A stretch of 64,000 nucleotides of DNA from a virus (taxonomy: Duplodnaviria; Heunggongvirae; Uroviricota; Caudoviricetes), in the IMG/VR virus record IMGVR_UViG_3300045049_000056, positions 1 to 64,000 of that record; one strand, written 5' to 3'. Below, in pieces: positions 9,677 to 58,658 of this stretch; position 1 is the first letter of the stretch, and each line of letters starts with the position of its first letter. The notes beneath the pieces are model-generated. The model had not been told where the DNA came from and did no database searches. It saw only the letters and a list, made by a program, of their open reading frames with translations. Made by a program: the position numbers and the translations under genes.

Positions 9677-9684
9677 TTTGTAGA

Positions 9685-9708
9685 GGGGCGCCGAAAGGCG
9701 CTCTTTCG
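9685..9708 (+). terminator. putative terminator hairpin (GCGCC-GAAA-GGCGC) + UCUUUCG
   Basis: Directly after the stop of gene 9344..9676. Confidence 0.4.
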
Positions 9709-9727
9709 ATTAACTAAGGAGAGAGAA

Positions 9728-10069
9728 ATGAAACGTAGCATTGCACGGAAATGGGCTGCTGCACTAGCCAGTGGGGAGTACAAGCAAGGATTTGGTCAGC
9801 TTCGTAAAGGTGACAAATTTTGTGCACTTGGTACACTCTGTAATTTGCATGCACAAGAGCATCCTGAGGTTGCGGCAAAAGAGAAAGTAAAATCGCGCTA
9901 TCTTGGAGAAGAAACCATGTTGCCAACCCAAGTGGTGGAATGGGCAGGCATGAACTCTTCGGACGGTAAAATCAACTGGCGAGCGAGCATCATTGATCTG
10001 AATGACGAAGATAAAATGTCGTTTCCAGAGATTGCGAAAGTCATTAGAAACTGCTGGAAAGAACTGTAA
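9728..10069 (+). CDS. hypothetical protein (113 aa)
   Basis: AAGGAGAGAGAA then ATG. Confidence 0.55.
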   Translation: MKRSIARKWAAALASGEYKQGFGQLRKGDKFCALGTLCNLHAQEHPEVAAKEKVKSRYLGEETMLPTQVVEWAGMNSSDGKINWRASIIDLNDEDKMSFPEIAKVIRNCWKEL

Positions 10070-10083
10070 TTTAAGGAGAAATT

Positions 10084-10965
10084 ATGAACTATCAAATCAA
10101 CCCGAAATACATTAAATACGGCGCTGTAGGCGTTCTGGCGCTTATCCTCGCATCTTGTGCAAATCCATTCCACTCTGTACCTACCGGCTCCCGTGGTGTT
10201 GTCACTTCCTTTGGCAAGATTTCCGGTATTGAAGATGAGGGTCTTGTTGTTCTGCCTCCGTGGAAGAAACTCACCATTTTCAACATCCGTGCTGAGAAAG
10301 CTGACATTGAGAACGCGGAAGGTAGCACGAGCGATCAACAACCTGTCAAGGTGAGCATGACTGTGCGTTACAGCGTCGCTACCAACAAAGTTAGCGAAGT
10401 GTACGAGAAATATTCTCACGATGGCGATCTGTCAAGCTACGTTCAGACGGCCACACAAGAAGTGTTCAAGGCTGTTACGGCTCAATACTCTGCACCTGAT
10501 CTGATTATGCAGCGTGCCAAGGTTAGTGGTGATATTCGTAATCTGCTGGCCAAAAAGCTTGACATGTACGGTGCACAGGTTATCTCGATTGATATGCGTA
10601 GTTTCTCGTTCAGTCCCTCGTACATGGCAGCCATCAATGAGAAAGTTACGCAAGAGCAGCTTCGCCAAGGCGCTGAGAACAAGCTGAAAACTGTTGAGGC
10701 TGAGCAGAAGCAGAAAGTGGCAATTGCTGAGGCTGAAGCTAGTGCACAGAAGGTTCGTGCTGATGGACAGGCATATGCCACTACCAAGGCTGCACAGGCT
10801 GAAGCTGATAGCATCCGTGTGAAGGCACAAGCTCTTGCACAAAACAAGGATATGCTAGAACTGCGTCGTATCGAAGTAGAGCAAACTCGTGCAAGCCGTT
10901 GGGACGGTAAGCTTCCTACGTCGGTGTACGGTAGCGCACCTGTTCCGTTTATGAATGTAAAATGA
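10084..10965 (+). CDS. SPFH/Band-7 (prohibitin/HflK-like) domain lipoprotein (293 aa)
   Basis: Lipobox LILASC. Beta-rich SPFH-like core followed by a long Ala/Glu/Gln-rich coiled coil (QEQLRQGAENKLKTVEAEQKQKVAIAEAEA...), typical of HflK/C or YqiK. Confidence 0.55.
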   Translation: MNYQINPKYIKYGAVGVLALILASCANPFHSVPTGSRGVVTSFGKISGIEDEGLVVLPPWKKLTIFNIRAEKADIENAEGSTSDQQPVKVSMTVRYSVATNKVSEVYEKYSHDGDLSSYVQTATQEVFKAVTAQYSAPDLIMQRAKVSGDIRNLLAKKLDMYGAQVISIDMRSFSFSPSYMAAINEKVTQEQLRQGAENKLKTVEAEQKQKVAIAEAEASAQKVRADGQAYATTKAAQAEADSIRVKAQALAQNKDMLELRRIEVEQTRASRWDGKLPTSVYGSAPVPFMNVK

Positions 10966-11150
10966 TCCATTGGCCCGTTCTCCCTTTCAAGCCTACGCAC
11001 AAGGTTATTGTTGAGAACAATGAGCACGAATACAAAGCAGGGACGATTGTGCAGCATTTGTATTCAAGTGGCTTGACAGAATATGCTTGGTACACTGACG
11101 AAGAGGGTTGGATGCAGATTATGGATTCTACTGAATTGGAGGTGTTATGA
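10962..11150 (+). CDS. hypothetical protein (62 aa)
   Basis: ATGA-coupled to the SPFH gene. Confidence 0.5.
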   Translation: MIHWPVLPFKPTHKVIVENNEHEYKAGTIVQHLYSSGLTEYAWYTDEEGWMQIMDSTELEVL

Positions 11151-11374
11151 CTAATTTTCTTTTTGCGTTTATGGCGCTTACTGTAGTGTGGGGTATCATC
11201 GGTATGATTCGTGTTGATATTGTGTACAACCATCTAAAGCGACGAATCAAAGAGGTGTACTCTTCCAAAAACTGGCACAAGTATGAAATTGACATTCCCG
11301 GCACTTACAACTTGGCGCTGTGGGACTACCGCAAGTGGACGTACAAGCAATTCTTTCCAGAGGACGTGAAATGA
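11147..11374 (+). CDS. small membrane protein (75 aa)
   Basis: N-terminal TM helix FLFAFMALTVVWGIIGMI. Confidence 0.5.
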   Translation: MTNFLFAFMALTVVWGIIGMIRVDIVYNHLKRRIKEVYSSKNWHKYEIDIPGTYNLALWDYRKWTYKQFFPEDVK

Positions 11375-11550
11375 TATTTTTCTTACTGTTTTGGTTGGTT
11401 TCGGCAGGCTTGACATTGCTTATAATTGCTAAGATTGAGAAATGTATTACTTTGTTTGACGTAGGGATGTCGCTTCTGTGTGGTCCAATTGCAACTATTC
11501 CTGCGTTCTTTCAGTTTGGCCACGAGATCAACCTTTGGACAAAGAAATGA
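11371..11550 (+). CDS. small membrane protein (59 aa)
   Basis: ATG at 11371 (MIFFLLFWLVSAGLTLLII...). The track ORF 11320.. is an upstream extension. Confidence 0.45.
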   Translation: MIFFLLFWLVSAGLTLLIIAKIEKCITLFDVGMSLLCGPIATIPAFFQFGHEINLWTKK

Positions 11551-11720
11551 AAACAATCTTGTTAGCAATCTTAGGAGCGCTGCTCGGCTTTCTTGCTGGA
11601 GCGTTCTACAGTGTCAGCTTTGATATTTCAACATGGACTGAAAGCACTAGGTTCATGACGTTGCTGTTTATGTTCGGTGCCGGGTGTTTTGGCGTTGTTG
11701 TAGGGGAGTCAGTAGCATGA
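11547..11720 (+). CDS. small membrane protein (57 aa)
   Basis: ATGA overlap. Two hydrophobic helices. Confidence 0.45.
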   Translation: MKTILLAILGALLGFLAGAFYSVSFDISTWTESTRFMTLLFMFGAGCFGVVVGESVA

Positions 11721-11858
11721 AACAAACATTCTACGACCTAATCACATATCTTGAGCAGAACGAAGACAGCTTTCACTTCGATGGACAATTCGATATGGAA
11801 TCATTGGCTTCCGAGATTCTTGCTTTTGCTAGCGAGTTTGAGAAGCAATTTAATTAAG
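11718..11858 (+). CDS. small acidic protein (46 aa)
   Basis: ATGA overlap. Below the track's size cutoff. Fills the gap before 11867. Confidence 0.35.
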
Positions 11859-11866
11859 GAGAAATA

Positions 11867-12472
11867 ATGCCAACAGGATACACAGCGGTTCTGAACGAAC
11901 GCGACACCACGTTTCAAGAGTTCGCTTTACGTTGTGCGCGCGCATTCGGCGCACTGGTTCATATGCGCGACGACAAATTAGATGCAGAACTTCGTGAAGA
12001 TGTTGTAAGCCCGTTTTACGAAGAACGTTTGAAAGAGGCTAAGAGTAATCTTGCGACGTTTAGTATGTTGTCTGTCGATGTCGCACAGAAATTAATGTAT
12101 GATGAAAAGCTTGTACAGCATAAGCGTGCTCTAGAACGAATCGCTGAACTGAATGTTGTGAAGGGTCGCTACGAGCAAATGCGTCAAGAAGTGGAAGATT
12201 GGGTTGTTCCTACGAGCGAGCACAAGGCGCTTAAGAGTTTTATGTTGGACCAACTTGATATGTGCAAGTCTGATTACGACATTTCTTATTACGAAGAAAG
12301 TGCGAATGCTCCTGCATACCCCACAGAAGGTGAAGCGTTCAAGTGGCTTAATGAGCAAATCAAGAAGCATTCTTCTGATGTTGCGTACTATGGGAAACAG
12401 TACTCAGAAGAGGTTGAGCGTGTTAGCAAGCGTAACGAGTGGGTTAAACAGCTTCAGGAATCTTTGCAATGA
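11867..12472 (+). CDS. hypothetical protein (201 aa)
   Basis: AAGGAGAAATA then ATG. Confidence 0.6.
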   Translation: MPTGYTAVLNERDTTFQEFALRCARAFGALVHMRDDKLDAELREDVVSPFYEERLKEAKSNLATFSMLSVDVAQKLMYDEKLVQHKRALERIAELNVVKGRYEQMRQEVEDWVVPTSEHKALKSFMLDQLDMCKSDYDISYYEESANAPAYPTEGEAFKWLNEQIKKHSSDVAYYGKQYSEEVERVSKRNEWVKQLQESLQ

Positions 12473-12678
12473 GCATCACGGACAAGATTGAGCAACAATG
12501 GCTTAGCTACGTAGGCGAAACAGGACGAATGCCAAAGTATCTATTCTTAGGCTTCATTGATATGACCGACCTTGATAAGAAGCTAGGTATGGTGACGTTT
12601 AGATACAAAGAGATGGATGTTGTAGGCGTGGAGCGTGAGCGGCATGTGAGTGTTGGTGACAAGTATGCGGAGGTGTGA
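12469..12678 (+). CDS. hypothetical protein (69 aa)
   Basis: ATGA overlap. Confidence 0.5.
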   Translation: MSITDKIEQQWLSYVGETGRMPKYLFLGFIDMTDLDKKLGMVTFRYKEMDVVGVERERHVSVGDKYAEV

Positions 12679-29716: not shown

Positions 29717-29867
29717 AACTTCTTGCTTGGACAACACGATTTGTGAGTACGCCTACAAGTTAGGATACACACATATTGATTTTGACGAAGCTCTGTATAA
29801 GATTGTTGAGTCCGAGATGTACGGGTATGATTGGATTGAAGAAGGGAGTGTTGATGGCGCAAATTAA
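29703..29867 (+). CDS. small protein (54 aa)
   Basis: ATG at 29703. Overlaps the nrdA start by 14 nt. Weak RBS. Confidence 0.3.
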   Translation: MRVFETSCLDNTICEYAYKLGYTHIDFDEALYKIVESEMYGYDWIEEGSVDGAN

Positions 29868-32088
29868 GACGGTGAAGAAGCGGAATGGTGAAGTTGTTCC
29901 GTTCGATCCTGAAAAACTAACGCATTGGGCCAAATGGGCCGGTGATATTGGTGTCGATTGGTTTGCCATTGTTGGCGAGGCTTACAAGAAGTGCCCCGAC
30001 GAATGCACTACGAATGACCTTCAGAACGCAATGATTCAAGCATGCATGGATTTTGAAGATACTCCGCACATGTTGATGGCTGGCCGTTTATTGATGGGCG
30101 ACGTGTACAAACAGGCATTTGGTGGGCACAATAAGATTCCTACAGTGCCTCAAATGGCAGTTGCCATGATGACACTTGGTCTGTGGGAAAACATGGATTA
30201 CACGATTGATGAGCTTGACGAGGCCGAAGCATTCATCAACCACGACCGTGATCTTAATAGTGTTTACTCCGTTGTGAATCAAATCACCACTAAGTATGCT
30301 ATCAAGGATATTGAGACTAATCGTGTGTTGGAGTCGCCTGCGTTCGTGTGGATGCGTATGGCTCTTGGCGTGTGCAAAGAGGAGCCTCGTGAAACTCGTA
30401 TGCAGAGTGTCAAAGAGTATTACGAAGACTTTGCAACTGGGCGCATCAATGCACCTACACCGAACATTAACAATCTTGGAACTCCTAAGCGAAGCTATGC
30501 TTCTTGCTGCGTGTACAAGAGCAATGATGAGCTAGGTAGCCTTGCTGCTGGCGATCACATCGCTACTATTATGACGGCTGCTAGTGCTGGTATTGGTGGT
30601 ATGCTGATGACTCGCAGCAAAGGTGATGGCGTTCGTAAGAATACTATTCGCCACGGTGGCAAGCTGCCGTACTACAATGCTCAAGCGAGTGCCGTGAATG
30701 CTAACCTGCAAGGTGGTCGTGGTGGTGCGGAGACGATGCACTTCAATGCTCTGGACCCGGAGACGCCGCTGATTCAACGCATGCGACACCCAACCACTGT
30801 TGCATCGAAGGCAGAACGCCGTCTTGATTACAGCTTTGGTTTCCATCCTTTGCTTGCAGAGAAAGCAGCAAAGAACGAACAATGGATGCACATCAGCTAC
30901 AAAGCCAATCCTGACCTGTGGGAAGCTGCGTACCGTGCAGACGGAAGCTTTGAGAAGATGTACACCGAGCATGAGAATAGCAGCAAGCGTAAGAAGTTTG
31001 TGAGTGCTCGTGCAGTTGTGCTAGAGCACCTTCGCATGCAGGAAGAGACTGGTAGGATGTATGAACACAACACGTATGAAATGAATCGCCATACGCCGTT
31101 TAAAGACCCGATCTACAGTAGCAATTTGTGTCAAGAAATTGGCCTGCCAACCCAAGGGTATAAGGATGTTACCGAGTTATATCGGATGGATGACGATGTG
31201 CAGGGTGAGATTGGTTTGTGCAATCTTGGTGCAATTGTCGCTGGACGTGTAACGCCTGAGATGTATGAGGAAGTGGCGTATCGCACGCTGAAGATGGTGG
31301 ACAATGTTATCAGTATCATGGATTATCCGTTCCCACACCTGAAGTACACTGCGCAGGCTCGTCGTTCAGCAGGCATCGGCATTACCAATCTTGCTCATGA
31401 TATGGCAATGAAGGGGCTTCGTTACGATGCGGCTGAAGGTAAGGCGTACATGCACCGGCTTGCGGAGATGCATTCTTACTGGCTCCACAAGGCTTCTGTA
31501 CGGCTGGCCAAGGAGCGTGGTAAGTGCGATTGGTTCCACAAGACGAAGTATGCAGATGGTTGGCTGCCTATTGACACGTATTGCAAACACATCGATAATG
31601 TGACGGATCAACCCTTACTGTGCGATTGGGAAGGGCTGCGCAAGGAGATTGCTGAACATGGCATGCGCAACAGTGTCCTTGAAGCGTATATGCCTGTTGA
31701 GTCGAGCAGTATTGCTGGTAACACGACTAATAGCATTTATCCTGTTCGTGAACTTGTTGTTGTTAAAACGAGCGGTACGAATAAGAATGTGTTTCTTGCA
31801 CCAGATTTGGAAGAGTTGAAAGGTGCCTATCAGCTTGCTTGGACTGTGCCGCGTAAAGATATTACGGAGATGTACGGCATCTTCCAGAAGTTCTGCGGAC
31901 AGGCAATCAGTGCTGACCACTATCGTGCTTTTGCTGAAGGTGAGATTCCGAAGATTAGTGCCACGGAGATGTTTGAAGATTGGTTGTACAGAATTACGTG
32001 CGGCCTTAAGAGTGGCTACTACTCGAATACGAAAGCTGGTTTGACGTTGGAAGAAAGTGAAGCAGAATGTGAGGCTTGCAAACTATGA
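29854..32088 (+). CDS. nrdA: class I ribonucleotide reductase alpha subunit
   Basis: GAAGGGAG then ATG at 29854 (track TTG 29776). N-terminal ATP-cone VKKRNGEVVPFDPEKL. The body, including NLCQEIGLP and a C-terminal Cys pair, is of NrdA type. Confidence 0.85.
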   Translation: MAQIKTVKKRNGEVVPFDPEKLTHWAKWAGDIGVDWFAIVGEAYKKCPDECTTNDLQNAMIQACMDFEDTPHMLMAGRLLMGDVYKQAFGGHNKIPTVPQMAVAMMTLGLWENMDYTIDELDEAEAFINHDRDLNSVYSVVNQITTKYAIKDIETNRVLESPAFVWMRMALGVCKEEPRETRMQSVKEYYEDFATGRINAPTPNINNLGTPKRSYASCCVYKSNDELGSLAAGDHIATIMTAASAGIGGMLMTRSKGDGVRKNTIRHGGKLPYYNAQASAVNANLQGGRGGAETMHFNALDPETPLIQRMRHPTTVASKAERRLDYSFGFHPLLAEKAAKNEQWMHISYKANPDLWEAAYRADGSFEKMYTEHENSSKRKKFVSARAVVLEHLRMQEETGRMYEHNTYEMNRHTPFKDPIYSSNLCQEIGLPTQGYKDVTELYRMDDDVQGEIGLCNLGAIVAGRVTPEMYEEVAYRTLKMVDNVISIMDYPFPHLKYTAQARRSAGIGITNLAHDMAMKGLRYDAAEGKAYMHRLAEMHSYWLHKASVRLAKERGKCDWFHKTKYADGWLPIDTYCKHIDNVTDQPLLCDWEGLRKEIAEHGMRNSVLEAYMPVESSSIAGNTTNSIYPVRELVVVKTSGTNKNVFLAPDLEELKGAYQLAWTVPRKDITEMYGIFQKFCGQAISADHYRAFAEGEIPKISATEMFEDWLYRITCGLKSGYYSNTKAGLTLEESEAECEACKL

Positions 32089-33176
32089 GTGTATTTAATC
32101 AAGAGAATAACGAGTGGAAGACAGGTAAATATTCTCTATTTCTTGGGCAGGCTCCGGGACTGTACGACAGCATTAACGTAACGCACCCAACCCTGTTTAA
32201 GAAGTACAAGGAGCAGAAGCAGGCTGACTGGAGCGAGGATGAAATCGATCTGGAGCAATCTCGTATCGACATGCTGACGTGCCCTCCTGAGAGTCGTGAA
32301 CTGATGCTGGAGAATCTTGCCCTTCAGTGGGAAGCTGACTCGATTGCTGCGCGAAGCATTGCACCTTTATTTGCACCCTTCGTCACCAACAGCGAGTACT
32401 GGGCTGCGCTGCTGAAGATTAGCGAGATTGAAGTGCTACACGCTCTGACGTACTCAGAGATTGTTCGTGTTTGCATGGCTAATCCTAACGAAATCTTTGA
32501 GCGCATCATGAAGAATGACGAGATGACTGGTCGTATGGATACAGTGTCTCGGGCATTCAGTAATCTCTCAGATGCGGGGGCTCGATACAAGCTTGGAGAG
32601 ATTGACGAGGATGTTGCGTATGGCGTAGTAATGAGTGCCCTTGTTGCTCTGTACTGCTTAGAGCGCCTTCAGTTCATGGTGTCGTTTGCCGCGACGTTCG
32701 GTGTTGTTGAGACAGGCTACTTCCAAGGAATCGGAAAGCTCGTTCAAAAGATTATGCAGGACGAAAGGTATATTCATGCTGAAGTAGGCAAGTACGCTAT
32801 CAAGACTGAGCTTGCAACAGAACGTGGACAAGAATGGTTCTACTACAACAAAGGTATTGTGTTCAATACGCTTAAAGAAGTTGTTCGTGCAGAGTATGAC
32901 TGGAATGGTCACTTACACAGCAGCGGTCGCAAAGTTCCCGGCTTCACGCATCAGCTTGGTGTTGATTGGATCGACTACAACGCGCAGGAAGTGTATGAAC
33001 TGTTTGGCTTTGAGCCACCACGCAAGATTGTTAAGAATCCTCTGAAGTACATGGAGAATTGGCTTGATCTGAACAAAACTCAGAATGCCAATCAAGAAGG
33101 CGATCAAGCTAACTATCGCCTGAATATTATTGTTGACGATCTTGGAGACAAGATCATTGAATGGAGCTATCGATGA
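32085..33176 (+). CDS. nrdB: class I ribonucleotide reductase beta subunit
   Basis: ATGA overlap with nrdA. Di-iron/tyrosyl-radical helices (EVLHALTYSE..., FMVSFAATF...E..H...). Confidence 0.8.
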   Translation: MSVFNQENNEWKTGKYSLFLGQAPGLYDSINVTHPTLFKKYKEQKQADWSEDEIDLEQSRIDMLTCPPESRELMLENLALQWEADSIAARSIAPLFAPFVTNSEYWAALLKISEIEVLHALTYSEIVRVCMANPNEIFERIMKNDEMTGRMDTVSRAFSNLSDAGARYKLGEIDEDVAYGVVMSALVALYCLERLQFMVSFAATFGVVETGYFQGIGKLVQKIMQDERYIHAEVGKYAIKTELATERGQEWFYYNKGIVFNTLKEVVRAEYDWNGHLHSSGRKVPGFTHQLGVDWIDYNAQEVYELFGFEPPRKIVKNPLKYMENWLDLNKTQNANQEGDQANYRLNIIVDDLGDKIIEWSYR

Positions 33177-49707: not shown

Positions 49708-50198
49708 TGTCCCTTCTTAAAAAATTGCATCTGTTCTCTAATTCTCATCGCCACAGCGATTCCATCGACTTCTTCCGGGTCTTGTTCTGGTGCGTACGGT
49801 GCAGGACGTTTCGGGTCTGATGCTCTTGAATACTCTGTACAGTAAGCTTCCGACATCTTCTTAAGCAACTCTCTTTCCCACAAAGTTATCTCTAACTCGT
49901 TCTCTTCTCTAAATGCCTTAATCTCTTGCCAAGACAGGGGGACCAATCCCATACCTGTCTGAGTGGCCTGACCGCTCAAATAGAAATAGCCCAACAGATA
50001 CCCAAATGCAGACGGAATATCTGGCAGATGAATCTCTGTTGGGCCTTGAATCACTTCTCCGTCATCATCACGTTGCACAAGATTTACACCTTGAGCAAGT
50101 TCAAAACGGCTTTTAGTTGATTTTTCTGGAGTGGCGCCAAGCCATGCAAGCTGGCGCGCATAGAGAAGAAAGAGGTTGCTTAACGCTTCAAAAAATGT
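49704..50198 (-). CDS. T-frame extension of tail assembly chaperone (GT fusion via -1 frameshift)
   Basis: This frame is open from 50198 to the stop at 49704 overlapping the TMP start (ATGATGA). It is entered from G by a -1 slip at T TTT TTG. The track shows only 49704..50078 (TTG). Confidence 0.7.
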   Translation of the reverse strand, partial: TFFEALSNLFLLYARQLAWLGATPEKSTKSRFELAQGVNLVQRDDDGEVIQGPTEIHLPDIPSAFGYLLGYFYLSGQATQTGMGLVPLSWQEIKAFREENELEITLWERELLKKMSEAYCTEYSRASDPKRPAPYAPEQDPEEVDGIAVAMRIREQMQFFKKGQ

Positions 50199-50596
50199 TC
50201 AACACTCTGGACAGCTTTATTAACTTGCACTTTCACCCAGTCATAATGCGGGTCCAGATACAGCTTGCGGAAAGCTTCAGGATTATCAACCGGCTCACCG
50301 TTCAGCGTCATATTATCGACACGGACAGACAGGGCAGTGAGGAAATCAGCATTCTGTTCACGCAGTTCATCAGGGGTCGCTTCACGCTTACCACGTTTGT
50401 TGATCTTCTTCATCATAGCGTCAACAGCTTTTTGGTATTCGCGGCTTGCTTCACCTTTCACAGTCACTTGCACAGGTTTCGATTCCGGGTCTTCACCTTT
50501 TTCAACTGGCGCAAACAGCAGTTCACCAGTTGCAGGGTGCTCAAGTTGAACAACGGTTTCTTCAGTCAGAGCCAGCGAGTTAAGTTCAAAAGTCAT
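50180..50596 (-). CDS. tail assembly chaperone G (138 aa)
   Basis: Position and length match. The slippery site sits 3 codons before its stop. Confidence 0.75.
   Translation of the reverse strand: MTFELNSLALTEETVVQLEHPATGELLFAPVEKGEDPESKPVQVTVKGEASREYQKAVDAMMKKINKRGKREATPDELREQNADFLTALSVRVDNMTLNGEPVDNPEAFRKLYLDPHYDWVKVQVNKAVQSVEHFLKR
50189..50195 (-). promoter_or_regulatory. programmed -1 ribosomal frameshift slippery heptamer T TTT TTG
   Basis: Minus strand reads cat TTT TTG aag cgt taa. The -1 frame continues as F E A L S N... into the T ORF. Confidence 0.7.
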
Positions 50597-50697
50597 GGTA
50601 GAGTTCCTTTAAGTTTGTTATAATTGCTCTTGCGAGCGGGGTTTAGAGCTATTTTGCTCTTTGAAAAATCTTCTTCTAAACGCTCTAATATTTACTA

Positions 50698-50730
50698 GAA
50701 GGCTTAGAAGAAGAGAGGGCCGAAGCCCTC
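50698..50730 (-). terminator. intrinsic terminator/attenuator after major tail gene (GAGGGC-UUCG-GCCCUC + U-rich)
   Basis: Perfect 6-bp stem with UUCG tetraloop, followed by UCUUCUUCU on the minus strand. Confidence 0.55.
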
Positions 50731-50735
50731 GCGTA

Positions 50736-51197
50736 TTACGAGCCGGTAACAGTGATAACTGGGCTATCCAATTCCACGTCCACGTTCGATTGGAGGATGG
50801 CGTCAGCATTACCAATATTGGTCGGAACACCAGTCACGATGCCAGTGAAGTATTCCACGTCACCGAGAGCAGTCGGGTAAACAACTTTGAACGAAATCGA
50901 TGCGCGCGAGTTGAAAGCAGAGACAAGACCTGTGAAGTCAGCGCCTTTGTGGCGTGCCAGCGTCAGCGACATCGTGCCGTAGTCAACGGAACCAGCGCGC
51001 TTAACAACGGTAGCGGTGTCAACAGGGATGTGCTTCTGGACCGAAGTCTTACCACCAAATTGACCAATGTTGCTGACTTCAGAAACGAGCACCCAGCCAG
51101 TAACAGCCGTGTAGCCAGCCGAGTCAAACGTAGCAGGCAGAGTAGGCGAGAAATACAGTTTTGTGGTTGCGCTAGTAATAGCAGACGATTGAGCCAT
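50736..51197 (-). CDS. major tail (tube) protein (153 aa)
   Basis: Position upstream of G/GT. Beta-rich. Followed by a terminator. Confidence 0.7.
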   Translation of the reverse strand: MAQSSAITSATTKLYFSPTLPATFDSAGYTAVTGWVLVSEVSNIGQFGGKTSVQKHIPVDTATVVKRAGSVDYGTMSLTLARHKGADFTGLVSAFNSRASISFKVVYPTALGDVEYFTGIVTGVPTNIGNADAILQSNVDVELDSPVITVTGS

Positions 51198-51246
51198 TTT
51201 ATTTCCTTAATAATATATAAAATTAAAACTTGCAGGATATAAGAGA

Positions 51247-51639
51247 CTACATCTCCTGCCTATATTTAACCCTCACTGCACACCACAAGAATGCTGCATC
51301 AATCATCGCTTGACTTGCGTTCGGTGTTTGTTCAACAGAGAAAGTTTGGTACAACTCTTTTTGATCGAAAGGGAACAGTGCAATAATCTCATCAGAGAGA
51401 GTATCCAAGGCTTTCATGCCCTTTCCGTTTGGCGTGTAACAGTTAATTTGAAACACTCCATTTTTACGAATCCTAGAGCCATCTACTGTGGGGTTTGTAG
51501 TATCAGAGGCTAGGAACACTAGTTCAATCCAATTACCAGCAGAGGGCTTCGTAAACGGAACACCTTCAACTGCAATCGGGATATTCTTAACAGTGGCGTA
51601 CACGCGAAGGGCTTGCTCCACTTCTTGACGAATGTTCAT
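51247..51639 (-). CDS. tail terminator/completion protein (gpU-like, ~130 aa)
   Basis: Internal ATG (MNIRQEVEQ...) overlaps the upstream stop. The track ORF 51247..51708 extends 5'. Confidence 0.5.
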   Translation of the reverse strand: MNIRQEVEQALRVYATVKNIPIAVEGVPFTKPSAGNWIELVFLASDTTNPTVDGSRIRKNGVFQINCYTPNGKGMKALDTLSDEIIALFPFDQKELYQTFSVEQTPNASQAMIDAAFLWCAVRVKYRQEM

Positions 51640-52082
51640 CAAATAATCCCCTTCATGTTGTTGAAGCTCACATCTACAGGAGCGTAATATCTGCGCATAC
51701 CTGTCCAAGTCCAGCCGCTAACAGGGTCTTTACCAGCAGGCCAAGCGGCGTACTCAACTCGATATGCGTAGTTAAGATTGTTACTCAACGTAATGAATCC
51801 ATCTTTCTGATAGAAAGCGTTAGACTCCTTGACAACCATATCAATGCGAGCTAAGCTGTCACTACCGTTGCTAGTTGCACCTGTGATAGATGTGTCATAT
51901 GAATTCACAGCAGGGAACCAGTTGGCCACAAAATGCCCTGCAACATATGGACCATCACCTGTGTGTGGGGAATTGTTGACAATCTTGTAGAATAGCGTGT
52001 ACCCAACGAAGTTGATCTTTTGATTGACTTCCTTGTTCACACGCTCGATGTTTGATTTGAGAGAGTCCAGAAAACTTCCCAT
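51639..52082 (-). CDS. head-tail joining protein (147 aa)
   Basis: GGGAGGAGC then ATG. Has its own consensus promoter. Confidence 0.5.
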   Translation of the reverse strand: MGSFLDSLKSNIERVNKEVNQKINFVGYTLFYKIVNNSPHTGDGPYVAGHFVANWFPAVNSYDTSITGATSNGSDSLARIDMVVKESNAFYQKDGFITLSNNLNYAYRVEYAAWPAGKDPVSGWTWTGMRRYYAPVDVSFNNMKGII

Positions 52083-52102
52083 GCTCCTCCCTATAGATCA
52101 GA

Positions 52103-52131
52103 ATTATAGCACTGGCTAACATTCTTGTCAA
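52103..52131 (-). promoter_or_regulatory. consensus promoter, class B (TTGACAAGAATGTTA-N-TATAAT)
   Basis: Minus-strand -35 at 52131-52126, 17-nt spacer, -10 at 52108-52103. Confidence 0.6.
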
Positions 52132-52133
52132 TT

Positions 52134-52532
52134 TTACGGTTGCACAACATACGAACCTTCTAGTAAGGTTTCGGAGTAGTTTTTAGCTTTGACAGAAACA
52201 TCATACTGATAGAAACCTGCATCCATATTTTCAACCTTGAATGAAACAACACCCTTAATATCGGTGTTGATCTTCCCCTTGCTCGTGAGCACAACATCAT
52301 CATCTTTGGAAATCGTCAGGAAAATTGCCATTCCAGTTATATCAGCAGGAAGATTCGTTTTCATTTCAAAAACAGAGAAGATGTCTTGGTCAAAGTTGGA
52401 TAGGCTTTTTACAAGCTGCCGCTTCATAGCTCCAAGAGGCACAGCACGAAGCTGCACCCTTGGCTTAGCTGCAAATGTCACGTCATCTCTGCTCAAAGCT
52501 TCATTGATAACAATTACTTTGCACGAGTTCAT
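52134..52532 (-). CDS. hypothetical structural protein (132 aa), Ig-like beta composition
   Basis: ORF in the structural module. Confidence 0.5.
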   Translation of the reverse strand: MNSCKVIVINEALSRDDVTFAAKPRVQLRAVPLGAMKRQLVKSLSNFDQDIFSVFEMKTNLPADITGMAIFLTISKDDDVVLTSKGKINTDIKGVVSFKVENMDAGFYQYDVSVKAKNYSETLLEGSYVVQP

Positions 52533-53230
52533 TACTCCTCCGCAACATCAATGTACACAGTTCGTTCATCGGTGCGAGACGGTGTAGTAAGAGTCTTAAT
52601 CTTACATGCCACGGTTGCTGCGCTTCCAGCCGTACCGCCAGTAATGAACACAGTGACCTTGCTGCCATCCGAGAAACTTCCAACGCTACTTACACCATTC
52701 AGAGTGAACGTCACTTCGGAAATTTGGACAGACCCAATGTCATCTAACCAAGGAGTCCAATCGAAGGTAACATCAATCGTAGCATCAGGGTCTTTAGCCC
52801 CCCGTGGCTTTTTAGGATCAGTTAATGTCCACCACCTGCCGCCTGTAAACATCGGGCTAGTGGACTGAACAGTAATTGTTCTGGCTGTACTTGGTGTAAA
52901 CATTGGAATCGCCTGTGAAGTAGTTAAGTCTCCAGAAACAGTACTTTGTGAGATTAATAGTGCTGTGAATCTAACTCCGGAAGAGAGAGAACTCGCGCTT
53001 AACGTCGAGGCGGATGCCAGATTTGCTGTCAATTGGGCAGCAGGAGAACTTAACGCAGAGGTTAAAGCAGAAGCAGATAACAATATTGCGGACAGCTTAA
53101 TGCTTGTACTTATTACCGCTGTTACGCCGGATGTGGATGACAAAGAGCAAGAAAGAGACGCCGAGGAAGCGCTTGTGGCACTCCCCGACGAACCTACTGC
53201 ATCCATGCCTACTGCATTAAATGCTGGCAT
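52532..53230 (-). CDS. structural protein with ~110-aa Ser/Ala/Leu/Thr-rich low-complexity N-terminus (232 aa)
   Basis: AAGGAG RBS 6 nt before ATG at 53230, directly after the upstream TAA. The C-terminal half is a normal beta-rich domain. Confidence 0.55.
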   Translation of the reverse strand: MPAFNAVGMDAVGSSGSATSASSASLSCSLSSTSGVTAVISTSIKLSAILLSASALTSALSSPAAQLTANLASASTLSASSLSSGVRFTALLISQSTVSGDLTTSQAIPMFTPSTARTITVQSTSPMFTGGRWWTLTDPKKPRGAKDPDATIDVTFDWTPWLDDIGSVQISEVTFTLNGVSSVGSFSDGSKVTVFITGGTAGSAATVACKIKTLTTPSRTDERTVYIDVAEE

Positions 53231-53240
53231 GGTTTACTCC

Positions 53241-55856
53241 TTATACCCAAGTACCCGTACCGCTCGGCGCGATGAACTGACCACCACTCTGCGACTGGAT
53301 TTGGAAGTACAACGTACCTGTCGGGACACCCGTGAATTGGAGAATCTGTGTCCAAGTTTGTGCGTTATCACTCGACACGTACGCCTGAATCGTCGAACCT
53401 GTTCGGCGGAACTCCATCCAGTCGTTTTCTGCCGGAACTCGATTGGACACCAAGGTGCTGCCGCTACCGTAGTACATACCGTAACCTGCTGTACCTGCCA
53501 TCATGTTGCCCGAGTTGTAGCCGTAACCGTCGATAGTCTTCGTAGTTTTGAAGCCAATCATCGGCTTGGTATTTCCACTATTGAGCTGGGCAATCTTGAC
53601 GCGGATCGTACCATCACCAGACAGTCCAAGACCAGTGACACCACCCAGCGGACTATTGTCGTAACCAACACCTGCTGCGGTCTGATAGGAGTACGGTGCG
53701 ACGCTGGAGGTTTCCGTCATGCGCTGGAGAGTTGCGCCATTAAAGCGGATATCCTGTGTGCCGCTTGACGATGCGTTGACAACGTAAGTATTCGACGTTG
53801 CAGTGACACCAGTATTCACGCGGTCACGAACACTCAAGGTACGACCTGCACTGCTTGTAGAAGGCGTCAGACTAAAGGACCATGTACCATTCGCATTGAT
53901 GGTTGCTGCGATCTGCGTCCACACACCTGCTGTGTCATCACTCAAGCGATAATCGAGGTTTGCAGGCTGTACCGTAGTCCATGTACCGGACACGGTGAAC
54001 GGCGTACCAACTGTCTGCGTTGCAATCGTGTTGATCGATAGAGTTTCAGACGAAGCCGCAGATGCCGTGAAAGTAATACTTGTCGGATTAGTCAGGCTAC
54101 CATTGTTGGTTGTGCTGATCGTGATCGTGCCAGCAGCAGCGGCCGTATAAGTGAACGTGGCTGTCGGGCTGGCCGTTGTGAGCGAAACACTAGTCGGAGA
54201 GAACGTACCACCTGCACCGCCATCCGAAGGAGTTACAACGACTGTGCCTGTAATATTGGAGCCTACAGGCGATACACCGACAGTGAAGTTACTAGAAGCC
54301 ACACCCGCTGTACCTGTTGTCGGGCCAGTCAACGTAGTAGCTGTTGCTGTAGACGGAACGTTATTGCCGATGGATTGTGTCGTACTAACCATCTGATTGC
54401 CTGCCAAGTCACGCAAGCCGTTTGTTCCCGGTGCTGTGTACGTAAGCGTGCGAGCAGCTTCACCATAAACAAACGCAGGTGTAACAGAAACGTAGATGTA
54501 ATTACCTTGGACACGTACTCCAGTAGCAGTATGGCCCGTAAGCGTAAATGCCGAAGCAGCAGGAACATAGTTCGGATCAACAGGCTCAGATACCGACCAA
54601 GCAATTGTAGAGGCATCCGATGCGTACACAATTGCAGCACGAGTTACAGGGGCAGTTGTGTCAACGCCCTGCGACAACATTGCTTGAGGAATCACCGATG
54701 CCATATTGGAGCCTAGCAAACGTGCACCAGCGGCATTGTAATGGAGGTTGTCACCCATCATATAGCCGGACAACCCCGGAGTATAAGCACAACGGGGGAA
54801 TTCTGCTGCAACAGTACGATGAGCATTGTCAACAGATTGATAACCCGGATGTCCAGAGGTATCAGCTACGTTTTCAGCTACAAGACCTCCAATAACAAAC
54901 CAAGCATTGGACGCAGTAGGCACACGGGTACGAATGGCTTGGATAAGAGTCTTCATCGCGCCGGTGTAATTCAGTTGCAGGTTTGAGCCATAGTAATCTG
55001 CGTCACCTTCGCCCTGATGCCATGCGATTCCAACAACACGCGATGCCGGATAAATCTTCTGTGCGGCTGTAACAGCGAGAGTGGCTTGATTGATAGCATT
55101 GTCGAGCAGAACGCTACCTGTTGCGCCAAGAGCTACGCCGCTGCCTGCGGTGCCGTCTCCGGGGAACCATTCTCGTGTGTCTGCAAACAGTTTAGTTGCA
55201 CTACGTGCGGCAGGAACCAGAAGAACTTTACGATTGCTTGGGCACATACCCGCATACGTGCGGCCGAGCCAAGAGCCGGGACCAAGACCCGCACCATTGC
55301 CCATTGTTGGCAAAGACACTTGTGCGAAATAATGACGTAGAGGATCAACAGCTTGCGTAATCTTCTGATACGTAGTCGCATCATTCGGGTAGCTACCGAA
55401 CATGTAGACTCGGGAATCTGCGAGGTCGAGCAACGGAGTGTTAACGTCCATGCCAACCATGTTCGATTGACCAAGCAAAAGAATAATGTCAAAGCCGGGA
55501 TCGTACGGATTAATCAACCCCATATTCAACAGTGCAGCAGGGGCACTATTAAACACTGTCGGCGTACCTGCAATGAAATTGACGGCATTACCGTTATTGG
55601 AGCTATTAATAATCTTCGTGCACGTAATAACTGTTGTGCTCGTAATCGTGAAGAAAGCACTTTGCCAATTACCAGCACCGTCATCTACGATGAACGGAAC
55701 ATTGATATCGCCAACAGCAATTTCATTAGCACTAATGGCTTGTGCGAGAGTTCGGCAGCCTGTCAAAGCTGCGCCCATAGTAATTGTAGCGTTCACAGAC
55801 AGAGTTGTAGAACTCATGCTGGACGCTGTAACCTTTAAGCGATCTGCAAATTTCAT
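53241..55856 (-). CDS. large structural protein with SASA/SGNH (sialate O-acetylesterase-like) esterase domain, Ig-like repeats and C-terminal lectin-like region (871 aa)
   Basis: FDIILLLGQSNMVGM is the GQSN hallmark of SASA/DUF303 esterases. Thr/Ser/Gly-rich tandem beta-repeats follow. AGGTGA RBS. Confidence 0.65.
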   Translation of the reverse strand: MKFADRLKVTASSMSSTTLSVNATITMGAALTGCRTLAQAISANEIAVGDINVPFIVDDGAGNWQSAFFTITSTTVITCTKIINSSNNGNAVNFIAGTPTVFNSAPAALLNMGLINPYDPGFDIILLLGQSNMVGMDVNTPLLDLADSRVYMFGSYPNDATTYQKITQAVDPLRHYFAQVSLPTMGNGAGLGPGSWLGRTYAGMCPSNRKVLLVPAARSATKLFADTREWFPGDGTAGSGVALGATGSVLLDNAINQATLAVTAAQKIYPASRVVGIAWHQGEGDADYYGSNLQLNYTGAMKTLIQAIRTRVPTASNAWFVIGGLVAENVADTSGHPGYQSVDNAHRTVAAEFPRCAYTPGLSGYMMGDNLHYNAAGARLLGSNMASVIPQAMLSQGVDTTAPVTRAAIVYASDASTIAWSVSEPVDPNYVPAASAFTLTGHTATGVRVQGNYIYVSVTPAFVYGEAARTLTYTAPGTNGLRDLAGNQMVSTTQSIGNNVPSTATATTLTGPTTGTAGVASSNFTVGVSPVGSNITGTVVVTPSDGGAGGTFSPTSVSLTTASPTATFTYTAAAAGTITISTTNNGSLTNPTSITFTASAASSETLSINTIATQTVGTPFTVSGTWTTVQPANLDYRLSDDTAGVWTQIAATINANGTWSFSLTPSTSSAGRTLSVRDRVNTGVTATSNTYVVNASSSGTQDIRFNGATLQRMTETSSVAPYSYQTAAGVGYDNSPLGGVTGLGLSGDGTIRVKIAQLNSGNTKPMIGFKTTKTIDGYGYNSGNMMAGTAGYGMYYGSGSTLVSNRVPAENDWMEFRRTGSTIQAYVSSDNAQTWTQILQFTGVPTGTLYFQIQSQSGGQFIAPSGTGTWV

Positions 55857-55866
55857 GCATCACCTA

Positions 55867-56310
55867 TTAGTTATCAATTTGAATCGACAGTGCGGCAGCC
55901 GAGAACGAAGGGGCGGCATCACCGCTGTTAACAGTTTTCGGAGTAGCCAGCGCACCGTACTCCCACTCATTACCTCCAGATGCAGCATCAAAGATGCCCA
56001 GTCCAACAATATTGCCCCAGTTAGCTGTAGGTGCAGGGAACGTAATAGAGTTGTTGTTCGACGTTGTTCCAGATGTTCCGTTAGATGCCACTGTTGTACC
56101 TGCGCCCTGCGTGCCAGCCCAATTGGCCATAGAGGATGTAACAGCCACGCGAGCGTAAGAGCCTCCAGACACTTCAACACGAGCACTACCTGCATCGTTG
56201 TCCGCAGTGGTAAACAGTGCAACATACAGAGTAGTAGGCGGTACGAACGATTGCCCACGGAAGAGAAAATCAATAAGTTTGTTTTCCAAATAATCCGACA
56301 TCGATGCCAT
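55867..56310 (-). CDS. hypothetical structural protein (147 aa)
   Basis: ORF in the head-tail region. Confidence 0.5.
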   Translation of the reverse strand: MASMSDYLENKLIDFLFRGQSFVPPTTLYVALFTTADNDAGSARVEVSGGSYARVAVTSSMANWAGTQGAGTTVASNGTSGTTSNNNSITFPAPTANWGNIVGLGIFDAASGGNEWEYGALATPKTVNSGDAAPSFSAAALSIQIDN

Positions 56311-56334
56311 TATTATTTCCTTTAAATTGTTGTG

Positions 56335-56730
56335 TTATTCACGAATATACAATTCGTATAAAATGCAATTTTCTTGTGCCAACGACGGATTTAATTGCTT
56401 CACCGTTACGATCTTGTAAGTCTTGTCACCAATCTTCAGGAAATCTCTGTTGGCGTTCAAGTGCGGCAATGCAATTCCGACTTCAGTTTTCTGAGGAGGT
56501 TGCACATAAACTTGCTTGTCCCCTGTCTGGACTAGTGTATTGTTCTGAGTGCCTTCGCCCTCATTCTTACGGACGTAATCAAACACCATAATGTTGACTG
56601 GGTAGTCTTGGTACGTAACTACGTTCTCAGATGTGGCAGGATCGTACTCTTCGCTAACAGACACAGTGATAAAACCAGATGTACCGAAGCGAGACATCAT
56701 TGTTGCTACTGTGCGGTCAAGTTGGTTCAT
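56335..56730 (-). CDS. head-tail connector/adaptor candidate (131 aa)
   Basis: Position after the major capsid gene. Confidence 0.45.
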   Translation of the reverse strand: MNQLDRTVATMMSRFGTSGFITVSVSEEYDPATSENVVTYQDYPVNIMVFDYVRKNEGEGTQNNTLVQTGDKQVYVQPPQKTEVGIALPHLNANRDFLKIGDKTYKIVTVKQLNPSLAQENCILYELYIRE

Positions 56731-57124
56731 TTATAATCGACCACCCTTCTGCACCGTACCAGAAGCGATAACGATGCCAATTCTTTTCAAACTTGACGAT
56801 GGGGCTTTGTGTTCCGTCACCGCTATACGGAATAGGGCTAATCTCAGACATACTTGGGTCTTTGACCATCATTGTCAGGTACTCTTTATACTGTTGGAAT
56901 ACCTGATTTCCATAAACCTCAATCACACCCATTCGCTGTTGAGAGTCGAATGCCAGTTGCGCCAAGATATAGTTCCCACACAAAATAGCGGCAGAGCGGA
57001 GGTTACCACCTTTATCAGCAAAGGCTTTTTCATAAACTTCGTCAGGTAAGATTGGAATATCGCGAGTATCCCCACAACGCATGCGAAGCAAGCCTACAGG
57101 GGAGTTAATATCAATAATTGGCAT
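56717..57124 (-). CDS. head completion candidate (135 aa)
   Basis: AAAGGAG then ATG, directly after the post-capsid terminator. Confidence 0.45.
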   Translation of the reverse strand: MPIIDINSPVGLLRMRCGDTRDIPILPDEVYEKAFADKGGNLRSAAILCGNYILAQLAFDSQQRMGVIEVYGNQVFQQYKEYLTMMVKDPSMSEISPIPYSGDGTQSPIVKFEKNWHRYRFWYGAEGWSIINEPT

Positions 57125-57139
57125 TCTTGCTCCTTTAGT

Positions 57140-57172
57140 ATTCTTAACAAAACGCCCTCCGAAGAAGGCGCT
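57140..57172 (-). terminator. intrinsic terminator after major capsid gene (stem + UUCG loop + UUUUGUU)
   Basis: Minus RNA GCGCCUUC-UUCG-GAGGGCG then UUUUGUU. Confidence 0.6.
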
Positions 57173-57187
57173 TCAGTCAAAACACTA

Positions 57188-58219
57188 TCAGTTCGAAGAG
57201 AACACGCGAATGACAGCTTGGGGGCGAAGCAAGGCGCTGATATGATTGCTCTCAGTTTCCAGCTCAATCTTCGTACCATTTTGGGCAGCTTGCTCAAATG
57301 CGTACATTTTTTCGCCCTGAGTATTCACCAGACCAAAACGTTCTGCCGGTGCGAAGTACGTCTTGAACATATCGCTGCCAGTCGGAACAGCGACACCTTC
57401 AGCCGGAGTGACAATCTTCTGGCCGTTGTACGAGTCGCGGACTTCGCGGAAGGTGACGCCACCAAACGTAAACTCACGGCCGTTAGGCATAACCGAGCCA
57501 CCGGCAGCAAGACGGCCACGAGTCGGGTCCATACCTGCGTTAGCAACGTAGAACTGGTATGCAGCCTTAACACTTGGATGGATAATCAGCTTGTTGAAGA
57601 ATGCGGTATCGCACGGGATGATAATACCTGTGAAAATACCATTGCCGCCCATACCGTCATGAACAGCTTGAATGACGAGTTCAATTTGCGAAAGAACGTC
57701 GGTAGTCGAAGTACCGAGCACGAAGTCCACTTGCTTGCGGGTCACGCCGAATTCAGCGTTCCAGTCTTGCACAACCGTACCGTTCGGAGCATACGCCGTA
57801 CCTTGGAACAGGGCTTGTGCACGAGCGGCGTTCAGCGTCCAGTCGTGGTTCTGGCGGATACGGACCAGCTTGCGGGTACGCACGGCGTCCAGTTGTTCAA
57901 CTTCGTCAAAGTTGTCATACGCCGATTTGTTTTGCAGGTCTTTAGGCGAGATATAGTCGTCCAGCGGAAAGTGCGGCACAGCAAAGGTGTGCAGCTTACG
58001 GCTACCTTCTTTGCTCACAACATTCTTGTCACCACGAACACGGTCGACCAGCAGTGCACCGTCAACAGTGGTTTCTTCGAACATCACGGTATCCGAGGCA
58101 ACGCCTTCTTCCGAGAAGATACCAAGTTGGTTGAACGTGCCGTACTGAATAGGAATATTCCGTACTGCTGCGGTCAGGTCAACTACTTCAAAATTATTAA
58201 GTGGGCTACGAATCAGCAT
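57188..58219 (-). CDS. major capsid protein (lambda gpE-like, 343 aa)
   Basis: Lies after the scaffold and decoration genes. Typical size. Followed by a strong terminator. Confidence 0.8.
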   Translation of the reverse strand: MLIRSPLNNFEVVDLTAAVRNIPIQYGTFNQLGIFSEEGVASDTVMFEETTVDGALLVDRVRGDKNVVSKEGSRKLHTFAVPHFPLDDYISPKDLQNKSAYDNFDEVEQLDAVRTRKLVRIRQNHDWTLNAARAQALFQGTAYAPNGTVVQDWNAEFGVTRKQVDFVLGTSTTDVLSQIELVIQAVHDGMGGNGIFTGIIIPCDTAFFNKLIIHPSVKAAYQFYVANAGMDPTRGRLAAGGSVMPNGREFTFGGVTFREVRDSYNGQKIVTPAEGVAVPTGSDMFKTYFAPAERFGLVNTQGEKMYAFEQAAQNGTKIELETESNHISALLRPQAVIRVFSSN

Positions 58220-58241
58220 TTTGTTTCCTTTGTTTCAGATA

Positions 58242-58658
58242 TTAGATAGTGGTCAGAACGTCGATGCCGACAGCGCCAAGTTGTGCGTAAGCTGCTTGAG
58301 TCAGGGCGCCCGCAGTAACGCTTGCACCAAAAGTCAGCGAGTTTGCCGACACAGCAGCCGGTCCGCGATACATCACCAAGAACGTCGTGTCCGTGGTTGC
58401 AGCCATAGCGGTAGGCATCGGCTTACCAGCGCTATTACCGACCACGACAGCAGCCGCCACTTGCGAGCCATCATTAGCCGAAGCTTCGCAAACTTTCCAT
58501 TTGCCAGTGGCAGTAACTTGACCCAGCACAGTGCCGATAGCGATAGTCGCAGCAGGACCATTCACCACGACAGTCTTTTTGCAGTAAGCCCAATCCGGGG
58601 CGTATTCGTGTTTGACTACATTGGAGTAGTGTTGATTTTCAGTTGCGATAACAGGCAT
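58242..58658 (-). CDS. head decoration protein (gpD-like, 138 aa)
   Basis: Small Ala/Gly/Val/Thr-rich beta protein between the scaffold and capsid genes. Confidence 0.6.
   Translation of the reverse strand: MPVIATENQHYSNVVKHEYAPDWAYCKKTVVVNGPAATIAIGTVLGQVTATGKWKVCEASANDGSQVAAAVVVGNSAGKPMPTAMAATTDTTFLVMYRGPAAVSANSLTFGASVTAGALTQAAYAQLGAVGIDVLTTI

Follow-up and report, generated by a model that had tools for sequence, protein, structure and literature searches.

A 64,000-nucleotide (nt) stretch of viral DNA (positions 1 to 64,000 of IMG/VR record IMGVR_UViG_3300045049_000056; hereafter the window), which is the larger part of a siphophage genome of ~88 kb, contains on its minus strand a gene for an 871-amino-acid (aa) protein with a SASA esterase domain. 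We propose that this protein is a virion-borne esterase fibre, carried as cargo by a neck-fibre cassette of three genes, a reading whose probability we put at about 0.62. The neck location is suggested by three observations: the flanking genes encode homologues of Gp80 and Gp77 of podophage GP4, the linkage between these genes is conserved, and two other loci (L014 and L095; loci are numbered with the prefix L) encode a fusion of the partner protein with a head-tail adaptor. An earlier note, made from the letters of the window alone, had suggested a collar or neck appendage, and the flanking homologues together with the adaptor fusions largely support this placement. The domain identities, the integrity of the catalytic motifs, the homology of the neighbours, the gene linkage and the accessory status are direct results; we infer the neck location, docking mode, oligomeric state, substrate and biological role of the fibre. 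The analysis is wholly computational, and the phage is known here from its genes and predicted structures alone. A protein identical to the 871-aa protein, P0001, is encoded on a JGI contig of 88,355 bp.

The esterase domain had been predicted from a GQSNMVG motif, which occupies residues 129-135. A search with the hidden Markov model of the SASA family (PF03629) confirmed this assignment: residues 122-388 match positions 2-223 of the 226-position profile with an E-value of 7e-20 and a score of 72 bits, against a cut-off of 24.8, and this is the sole Pfam match at E<=1 in the protein. The alignment of the catalytic serine, on which the earlier identification hinged, came out in its favour. In an alignment with 1ZMB, a SASA enzyme of solved structure, Ser131 coincides with Block I, which reads GQSNMAG there, and the Block I residues G129-Q130-S131-N132 are invariant in all 30 SASA-bearing homologues. 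The same homologues share Q281, G282, E283 and D285 of Block III (W279-H280-Q281-G282-E283-G284-D285) and His372 of Block V (D369-N-L-H372) without exception, while Asp369 is found in 13 of them. The domain also has the alpha/beta/alpha fold of SGNH enzymes. In the SASA signature, GQSN and (H)QGE form an inverted oxyanion hole, and the Block V aspartate is dispensable, as in NanS (PMC9487903); unlike NanS, the 871-aa protein has this aspartate. With this signature intact, the predicted esterase is very probably active.

Structure prediction, suggested in the earlier note as a check, was carried out with AlphaFold2 on the full protein (31 homologues in the input; mean predicted local distance difference test score, pLDDT, of 79) and separately on residues 1-118 (pLDDT 92). 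Together, the two models yield six parts, and the domain order is an anchor, the SASA esterase, immunoglobulin (Ig)-like spacers and a SPRY-like lectin domain (Table 1). The Ser/Thr-rich Ig-like repeats that had been noticed in the sequence are therefore real features of the model: two of them form beta-sandwiches, and Ser and Thr make up 42% of residues 501-602. In homologues, the spacer region contains the Pfam domains SWM_repeat, Big_5, Big_2 or fn3. The following Ser/Thr-rich insert (residues 603-698) is common only to homologue P0032 in the alignment, where it is located at another site in the protein, and it looks like the product of domain shuffling among fibres. The lectin-like C-terminal region proposed earlier likewise appears in the model, as a SPRY-like domain that we presume to be glycan-binding.

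The open reading frame (ORF) runs from ATG to stop at exactly the coordinates, and with the length of 871 aa, that had been given before; its strand, which the earlier note did not give, is minus. In the public annotation, the identical protein P0001 begins at Met27 and has 845 aa. The sequence is conserved among homologues from Met1 onward, a ribosome-binding site (RBS), AGGTGA, is present 4 nt 5' of the ATG at 55856, and beta-strands are modelled within residues 7-30. For these reasons, the 845-aa call is probably truncated, and 871 aa is the better reading. A start at Met27 would cost the anchor domain its first two strands (55776-55856, minus strand). In total, 69 homologues of the protein were found, about 20 of them full length, with 42-66% identity.

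The fibre gene is preceded, after a gap of 10 nt, by a gene for a 147-aa protein similar to Gp80, and followed, again after 10 nt, by a gene for a 232-aa protein whose ATG has an AAGGAG RBS 6 nt before it. We refer to these two products as the bead and the rope-collar protein. The match of the latter to PF23148 (Gp77, the fiber-tail adaptor of GP4) scores 53.4 bits against a 27-bit cut-off. Its Ser/Thr/Ala-rich stretch has a period of ~21 aa (z=3.5), compared with a period of 20 aa (z=5.9) in GP4 gp79. The motif at its N-terminus, MPAFNAVG, resembles YALNVAPING of gp79, and no significant alignment of the 232-aa protein to gp79 was obtained. Next in the operon-like series comes a gene for a 132-aa protein, which overlaps the stop codon of the collar gene by one base. 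Its gene comes after that for the collar in L009-L012 and before that for tail completion in L085, and neither of the cassette-less loci L080 and L094 has it. It may be a fourth member of the cassette, or a neck adaptor for the collar.

The linkage between these genes was analyzed in 8 loci obtained via identical-protein look-ups and 65 loci from IMG/VR, whose ORFs were searched locally. These loci contain 25 distinct anchor-domain proteins, and in 20 cases the next ORF opens with a motif of the MPAFNAVG..AVG type, as detected with the regular expression M-[PLI]-[AG]-F-[ND]-[AP]-[IV]-G-x-x-A-[VI]-G. The gap between the fibre gene and this ORF is 0-12 bp in 18 cases, and in the other two a separate SASA ORF lies in between. 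Elsewhere, the motif was found in only 2 of 3,923 ORFs of at least 80 aa, and SASA proteins without the anchor domain have no such motif-bearing neighbours. In L001, L008-L012, L022 and L025, as in the window, the motif protein ends in a Gp77 Ig domain; rope and collar are split in L018, and other small beta domains form the C-terminus at other loci. Most fibres are preceded by a protein of 125-165 aa, of which there are four types; only type A is recognisable as Gp80, and the Pfam Gp80 model did not recognise types B, C and D. Proteins of the latter three types stand at the bead position in L006 (9587-9991), L007 (9619-9996) and L008 (9513-10004), and those of type D open with IRxRLSGGASN.

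Two loci connect the motif to the head-tail adaptor directly. The L014 fibre is 65% identical to the 871-aa protein over residues 1-521, and its partner (10690-11706) contains 14-aa tandem repeats and a region, residues 168-319, that matches the head-tail adaptor family PHROG 442 (E=3e-18); Pfam did not recognise this adaptor domain, which PHROGs did. At L095, a P22-like podophage locus, a protein with the Pfam domain SU10_adaptor (8279-9055) opens with MLGYYPLGAVALG, followed by a Pro/Glu linker, and upstream of its gene lie those for an anchor-domain fibre and for a SASA protein of 270 aa that is encoded separately. These fusions put the motif on the adaptor ring, just beneath the portal, and presumably the fibre with it.

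The separate SASA protein of L095 (7386-8198) is part of a wider pattern. Anchor fibres that lack an esterase domain have an esterase gene directly after them in six loci, of the SASA type in L095, L059 (9443-10984) and L060 (9300-10853), and of the GDSL type in L028 (5024-5707), L029 (10001-10699) and L096 (1885-2556). This gene arrangement suggests that fibre and esterase can act in trans and that deacetylation is recurrent in the anchor-fibre family.

How widespread this family is became clear from a profile search with the anchor domain in 1.84 billion proteins, which returned 19,737 cluster representatives, 9,953 of them at E<=1e-10. The domain is nearly always located at residues 1-100, in proteins of 111-873 aa. 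Downstream of it, in a set of 87 anchor proteins, we found fn3 (26), SASA (14), SWM_repeat (9) and SPRY (8) domains, and further cargo consisting of other Ig-like, collagen, GDSL lipase, C1q and pectate-lyase-like domains. No Pfam family covers the anchor itself in these 87 proteins. Comparison of 17 members with Pfam, and of a profile with the PDB sequences, gave nothing consistent, and hhalign of the anchor against the N-terminus of GP4 gp76 was negative (probability 0.1). The predicted fold, a beta domain of ~110 residues, matches anchor domains of fibres and tailspikes, and gave no match to decoration proteins. Since the Pfam, PDB-sequence and hhalign searches were negative, the likeness of the modelled anchor to gp76 is at the level of the fold only.

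The cassette occurs in three kinds of backbone: a lambda-like head with a siphophage tail (the window), HK97-like siphophages (L007 and L008) and an E217-like myophage (L006). In all three, it is located between the capsid and tail genes. To relatives of the window itself belong 19 loci that were retrieved with its capsid protein, most of which encode a capsid protein 74-86% identical to it. In these loci (L076-L094), the junction between the genes for head-closure protein Hc1 and tail completion (52082-56335 in the window, minus strand) is empty in L080 and L094, spans ~1 kb in L079 and L089, and holds alternative fibre cassettes of up to 6.6 kb in L077, L081-L083, L085, L088 and L093. Thus, L077 contains a bead, a 647-aa anchor fibre, a 500-aa protein and a collar, and L081 contains a type D bead, an 842-aa cargo, a rope and a 92-aa collar. 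As close relatives have an empty or otherwise filled junction, the cassette is, judging from these gene contents, accessory and dispensable for virion assembly, and it behaves as an exchangeable adhesion module would. The surrounding genes are also mosaic. In L010-L012, identity to the window is 55-80% for the proteins of head closure, bead, collar, tail completion and chaperones, and only 28-31% for the major capsid protein. The capsid protein of L077 is 84% identical to that of the window, and this locus gave no match to the window tail genes. The capsid protein of L001 is only 31% identical, and its tail is also different.

Based on these results, we propose the following arrangement. The Gp77-like Ig domain of the 232-aa protein would form a collar around the head-tail adaptor or head-closure rings, and its N-terminal part would project outward as a rope, strung with dimers of the Gp80-like protein. 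The presumed rope has about four repeats of ~21 residues, which could accommodate about two such dimers, as in Bas63. The esterase fibre would be held by its anchor domain, which would dock on the collar itself or on the peptide at the N-terminus of the rope. Its lectin and Ig domains may then bind an acetylated surface or matrix polysaccharide near the head-tail junction, from which the esterase would strip O-acetyl groups. The outcome would be a reversible, receptor-modifying attachment, serving primary adsorption or passage through capsule or biofilm.

Several points weigh against this proposal. The tail would be very long, roughly 280 nm as estimated from ~0.15 nm per residue of the 1,860-aa tape measure, and an enzyme at the neck would be far from the tip. 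Because of this length, a neck-borne enzyme could not share a surface patch with the tail tip, and a direct role in irreversible adsorption is doubtful. In our view, the enzyme more likely serves a first, reversible contact, passage through capsule or matrix, or release from debris. It is less likely to be a primary host-range switch; the earlier note had called the gene a likely determinant of host range. The neck fibre of myophage A-1(L) carries a distal carbohydrate-binding module that failed to bind the host (PMC10966104). The pairwise match of the collar domain to GP4 gp77 is weak (E=0.024 to 8jou_D), the 871-aa cargo has no detectable likeness to gp78 or gp79 of GP4 (N-termini compared by eye), and gp76, the nearest structural relative of the anchor, binds the nozzle rather than the collar. 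In addition, the motif expression was composed after inspection of the sequences. The strict motif is missing at 5 of the 25 loci, of which L008 has a looser variant and L059 has an ORF of the rope/collar family downstream, and at L081 the motif occurs behind a cargo whose N-terminus differs, so that the pairing of motif and anchor is not exclusive. We regard this pairing as a hypothesis, not a rule.

The 871-aa protein might instead decorate the capsid, with its N-terminal domain bound to hexons or vertices, which would make it a head fibre. Such an enzyme exists: gp84 (NanS-p) of Stx phage phi24B has the same layout logic, with a small N-terminal virion-binding domain, a SASA domain and a C-terminal jelly-roll/lectin domain, and decorates hexons (preprint 10.64898/2026.04.10.717836). 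In L007 and L008, moreover, only two small ORFs separate the cassette from the major capsid gene on its 5' side, and decoration genes are typically found there; the whiskers of Bas63 and GP4 also touch the capsid (PMC12609058). On the other hand, DUF1737, the N-terminal domain type of gp84, was not detected in the 871-aa protein (Pfam, E<=1), whose N-terminal fold is of the fibre/tailspike-anchor type, and ~300 residues of Ig-like spacer separate its SASA domain from the C-terminal lectin domain, unlike in gp84. The phage already encodes a gpD-like decoration protein, and the tight linkage to the collar and bead genes, which gp84 does not have, and to adaptor-fused proteins points to the neck. 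We consider a capsid decoration unlikely, though the best placed of the alternatives.

Next in rank, and likewise improbable, is a conventional tail or side fibre, located at the tail tip or along the tube, with the position among the connector genes being a quirk of gene order. The resemblance of the N-terminal domain to tail-fibre and tailspike anchors would fit this explanation, as would the annotation of SASA proteins of Arthrobacter phages as minor tail proteins. However, the distal-tail proteins of the window (494, 949, 378, 232 and 474 aa) are encoded in a block of their own behind the tape measure gene, the position of the cassette between capsid and tail terminator is kept in siphophage and myophage backbones, and L014 and L095 encode the partner protein as a fusion with the head-tail adaptor.

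A cassette of a related kind is found in L003, a P22-like prophage of Massilia sp. PWRC2 (9582-12502), which encodes a type B protein, a 728-aa anchor-SASA-SPRY protein and a 103-aa motif protein between the regulatory/lysis region and the terminase gene. This position resembles that of nanS-p in Stx prophages. It would suit a non-structural enzyme (moron) that escapes when the cell lyses and then acts on glycans of the host or the environment, the role originally suggested for NanS-p of prophages, and so would the dispensability of the cassette in relatives, but this explanation is very improbable given the fibre-type anchor and the long Ig-like spacers, the tight packing of the gene, 10 nt from either neighbour, between genes for homologues of proven virion proteins, and the finding that even NanS-p now appears to be virion-bound (preprint 10.64898/2026.04.10.717836).

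If the 871-aa protein is indeed a neck-borne esterase fibre, the consequences extend beyond this phage. More tentatively, the anchor and the motif peptide (M-x-x-F-N/D-A/P-I/V-G-x-x-A-V/I-G) could be a general plug and socket that hangs exchangeable cargo on the portal-proximal adaptor of podophages, siphophages and myophages. The cargo would very often be an O-acetylesterase, of the SASA type when fused and of the SASA or GDSL type when encoded by a gene nearby. Were this true, a second organelle for glycan processing, borne on the neck and inherited from tail fibres of the podophage style, would be widespread among long-tailed phages. The receptor-binding and glycan-modifying enzymes of phages are usually sought at the tail tip, and this cassette would place one of them, an esterase, where head and tail meet. 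A candidate interaction pair consists of the anchor domain and the peptide at the N-terminus of the rope or adaptor. Between head closure and tail completion lies a hypervariable cargo slot whose products are now left as hypothetical proteins by annotation pipelines, and an unannotated domain family of ~20,000 clusters could receive a name. Confirmation would improve the prediction of host range, provide phage engineers with a site for enzyme display that leaves the tail untouched, and tie GP4/Bas63 collars and virion NanS-type esterases to a much wider set of environmental phages.

Table 1. Features of the fibre cassette and selected structural genes in the window; domain boundaries within the 871-aa protein are given in residues.
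Feature	Position	Strand	Evidence or remarks
gpD-like decoration protein	58242-58658	-	
Head-closure protein Hc1	56335..56730	-	Upstream limit of the cargo slot; PHROG 161, E=5.6e-11
147-aa Gp80-like bead/whisker protein (homologue of GP4 Fiber I)	55867..56310	-	Pfam PF23140, E=6e-42; PDB 8jou_a, E=9e-11; PHROG 240
871-aa anchor-SASA-Ig-SPRY fibre protein	53241..55856	-	ATG-to-stop ORF; stop codon 53241-53243; Pfam SASA, E=7e-20
N-terminal anchor domain, residues 1-118	55503..55856	-	Compact, beta-barrel-like; no Pfam or PHROG family
SASA/SGNH carbohydrate O-acetylesterase domain, residues 119-395	54672..55502	-	
Gln130 codon	55467-55469	-	
Ser131 codon	55464-55466	-	
His280-Gln281-Gly282-Glu283 codons	55008-55019	-	
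Asp369 codon	54750-54752	-	
His372 codon	54741-54743	-	
Two Ig-like beta-sandwich spacers, residues 396-500 and 501-602	54051..54671	-	AlphaFold pLDDT ~90
Insert, residues 603-698	53763..54050	-	Poorly modelled, probably Ig-like; pLDDT <50
C-terminal SPRY/B30.2-like (concanavalin-type) beta-sandwich, residues 699-871	53244..53762	-	
232-aa rope-collar protein	52532..53230	-	Pfam PF23148, E=3.7e-14; PDB 8jou_D, E=0.024; N-terminal motif MPAFNAVGMDAVG; Ser/Thr/Ala-rich region ~15-106; Gp77-like Ig domain 146-227
132-aa protein	52134..52532	-	PHROG 1084 and PHROG 16573, both of unknown function
Tail completion/Neck1 protein	51639..52082	-	Downstream limit of the cargo slot; PHROG 169, E=3.2e-12
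Tail terminator	51247-51708	-	PHROG 179
Tape measure, 1,860 residues	44125-49707	-	

The structural block to which the cassette belongs is transcribed from the minus strand. It begins with genes for the large terminase, a Mu-type portal, an S49 protease, a scaffold-like protein, the gpD-like decoration protein and a gpE-like major capsid protein. These are followed by genes for a 135-aa protein, Hc1, the 147-aa, 871-aa, 232-aa and 132-aa proteins, tail completion, the tail terminator and the major tail protein, and the block ends with two chaperones, the tape measure, five distal tail proteins and the lysis genes. The fibre gene thus lies between the head-closure and the tail completion and tail terminator genes, where the earlier note had placed it. 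The window also encodes its own primase-helicase (Toprim), family A DNA polymerase, ribonucleotide reductase and exonucleases; its replication half includes, at 10084-10965 and 29776-33176 (both plus strand), an SPFH/Band-7 protein and both subunits of the class I-type ribonucleotide reductase. No tRNA genes were found in the window, which hence gives no host clue of this kind.

Searches of known phages brought up no cultured relative. Megablast of positions 50000-58300 against 50,697 phage records returned no match, and tblastn of the 232-aa collar protein against the phage records did not return any either. With the 871-aa protein, tblastn found only matches of ~30% identity to the SASA domain, in Arthrobacter and Glutamicibacter phages, and the PHROGs search assigned it to no family.

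Esterases borne on virions and collar fibres of this type were both already known; what would be new here is a SASA-esterase cargo on a collar cassette of the GP4/Bas63 type in a long-tailed phage. The closest parallel is Ralstonia podophage GP4 (PDB 8JOU/8JOV), with which the window shares a Gp80-type bead, a Gp77-type Ig collar and, possibly, a rope-like segment, to judge by a period of ~20-21 aa. Cryo-EM has located these proteins around the head-tail adaptor in both GP4 and myophage Bas63. According to PMC11445570, fifteen copies of the 93-aa Ig-like adaptor of GP4 ring the dodecameric head-tail adaptor and hold the fibres. In Bas63, a homologous Ig-like collar has an N-terminal rope, on which whisker dimers (Gp80 homologues) are threaded like beads (PMC12609058). 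The rope of GP4 is a separate protein, which we equate with gp79; the presumed rope of the window is fused to the collar, as in Bas63. The genes of GP4 are arranged in the order gp80, gp79, gp78 (568 aa), gp77 and tail fibres, with gp78 presumed to form fibre II; gp78 was not found in the PDB. Like gp78, and like gp62 of Bcep22 (a middle protein of 688 aa annotated as pectin-lyase-like), the esterase fibre is a large cargo encoded between the bead and collar genes, and Itty13 has the bead, rope and collar genes and no cargo gene. The order differs in that the window has bead, cargo and a rope-collar fusion, as opposed to bead, rope, cargo and collar in GP4. Moreover, the window belongs to a long-tailed siphophage, in which the collar would be about one tail length from the tip. 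The site of the GP4 adhesin is given either as the tip of fibre I or as the collar itself, as secondary sources disagree on it (PMC12609058, PMC11445570, PMC13243795).

Such enzymes had been expected on tail spikes. This holds for SGNH tailspikes of the G7C type and is no longer the whole picture. G7C gp63.1 (PDB 4QNL) and the tailspike of cyanopodophage Pan3 (PDB 9VYH) are encoded in, and attached to, the adsorption apparatus at the podophage tail tip, whereas the gene for the 871-aa protein belongs to a siphophage, lies among those for the head-tail connector and is paired with genes for collar proteins. Long-tailed phages with neck-anchored fibres have a precedent in Anabaena myophage A-1(L), whose gp82-gp81-gp80 fibres end in a carbohydrate-binding module; its proteins are unrelated, with trimeric beads, a pentadecameric gp5 neck and no enzyme on the fibre. 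Finally, a payload-fibril-Ig model has been proposed independently for the extra structural module gp34-36 of Alishewanella siphophage LSH1, and this working model agrees with ours (PMC13243795). As in the window, three accessory genes of a siphophage, present in only some relatives, encode a payload, a homologue of the GP4 fibril and an Ig-fold protein. The payload of LSH1 is a lyase-like beta-helix and its module, for which the partner and location were not established in that study, lies downstream of the lysis genes, whereas the payload of the window is an O-acetylesterase encoded between head closure and tail completion.

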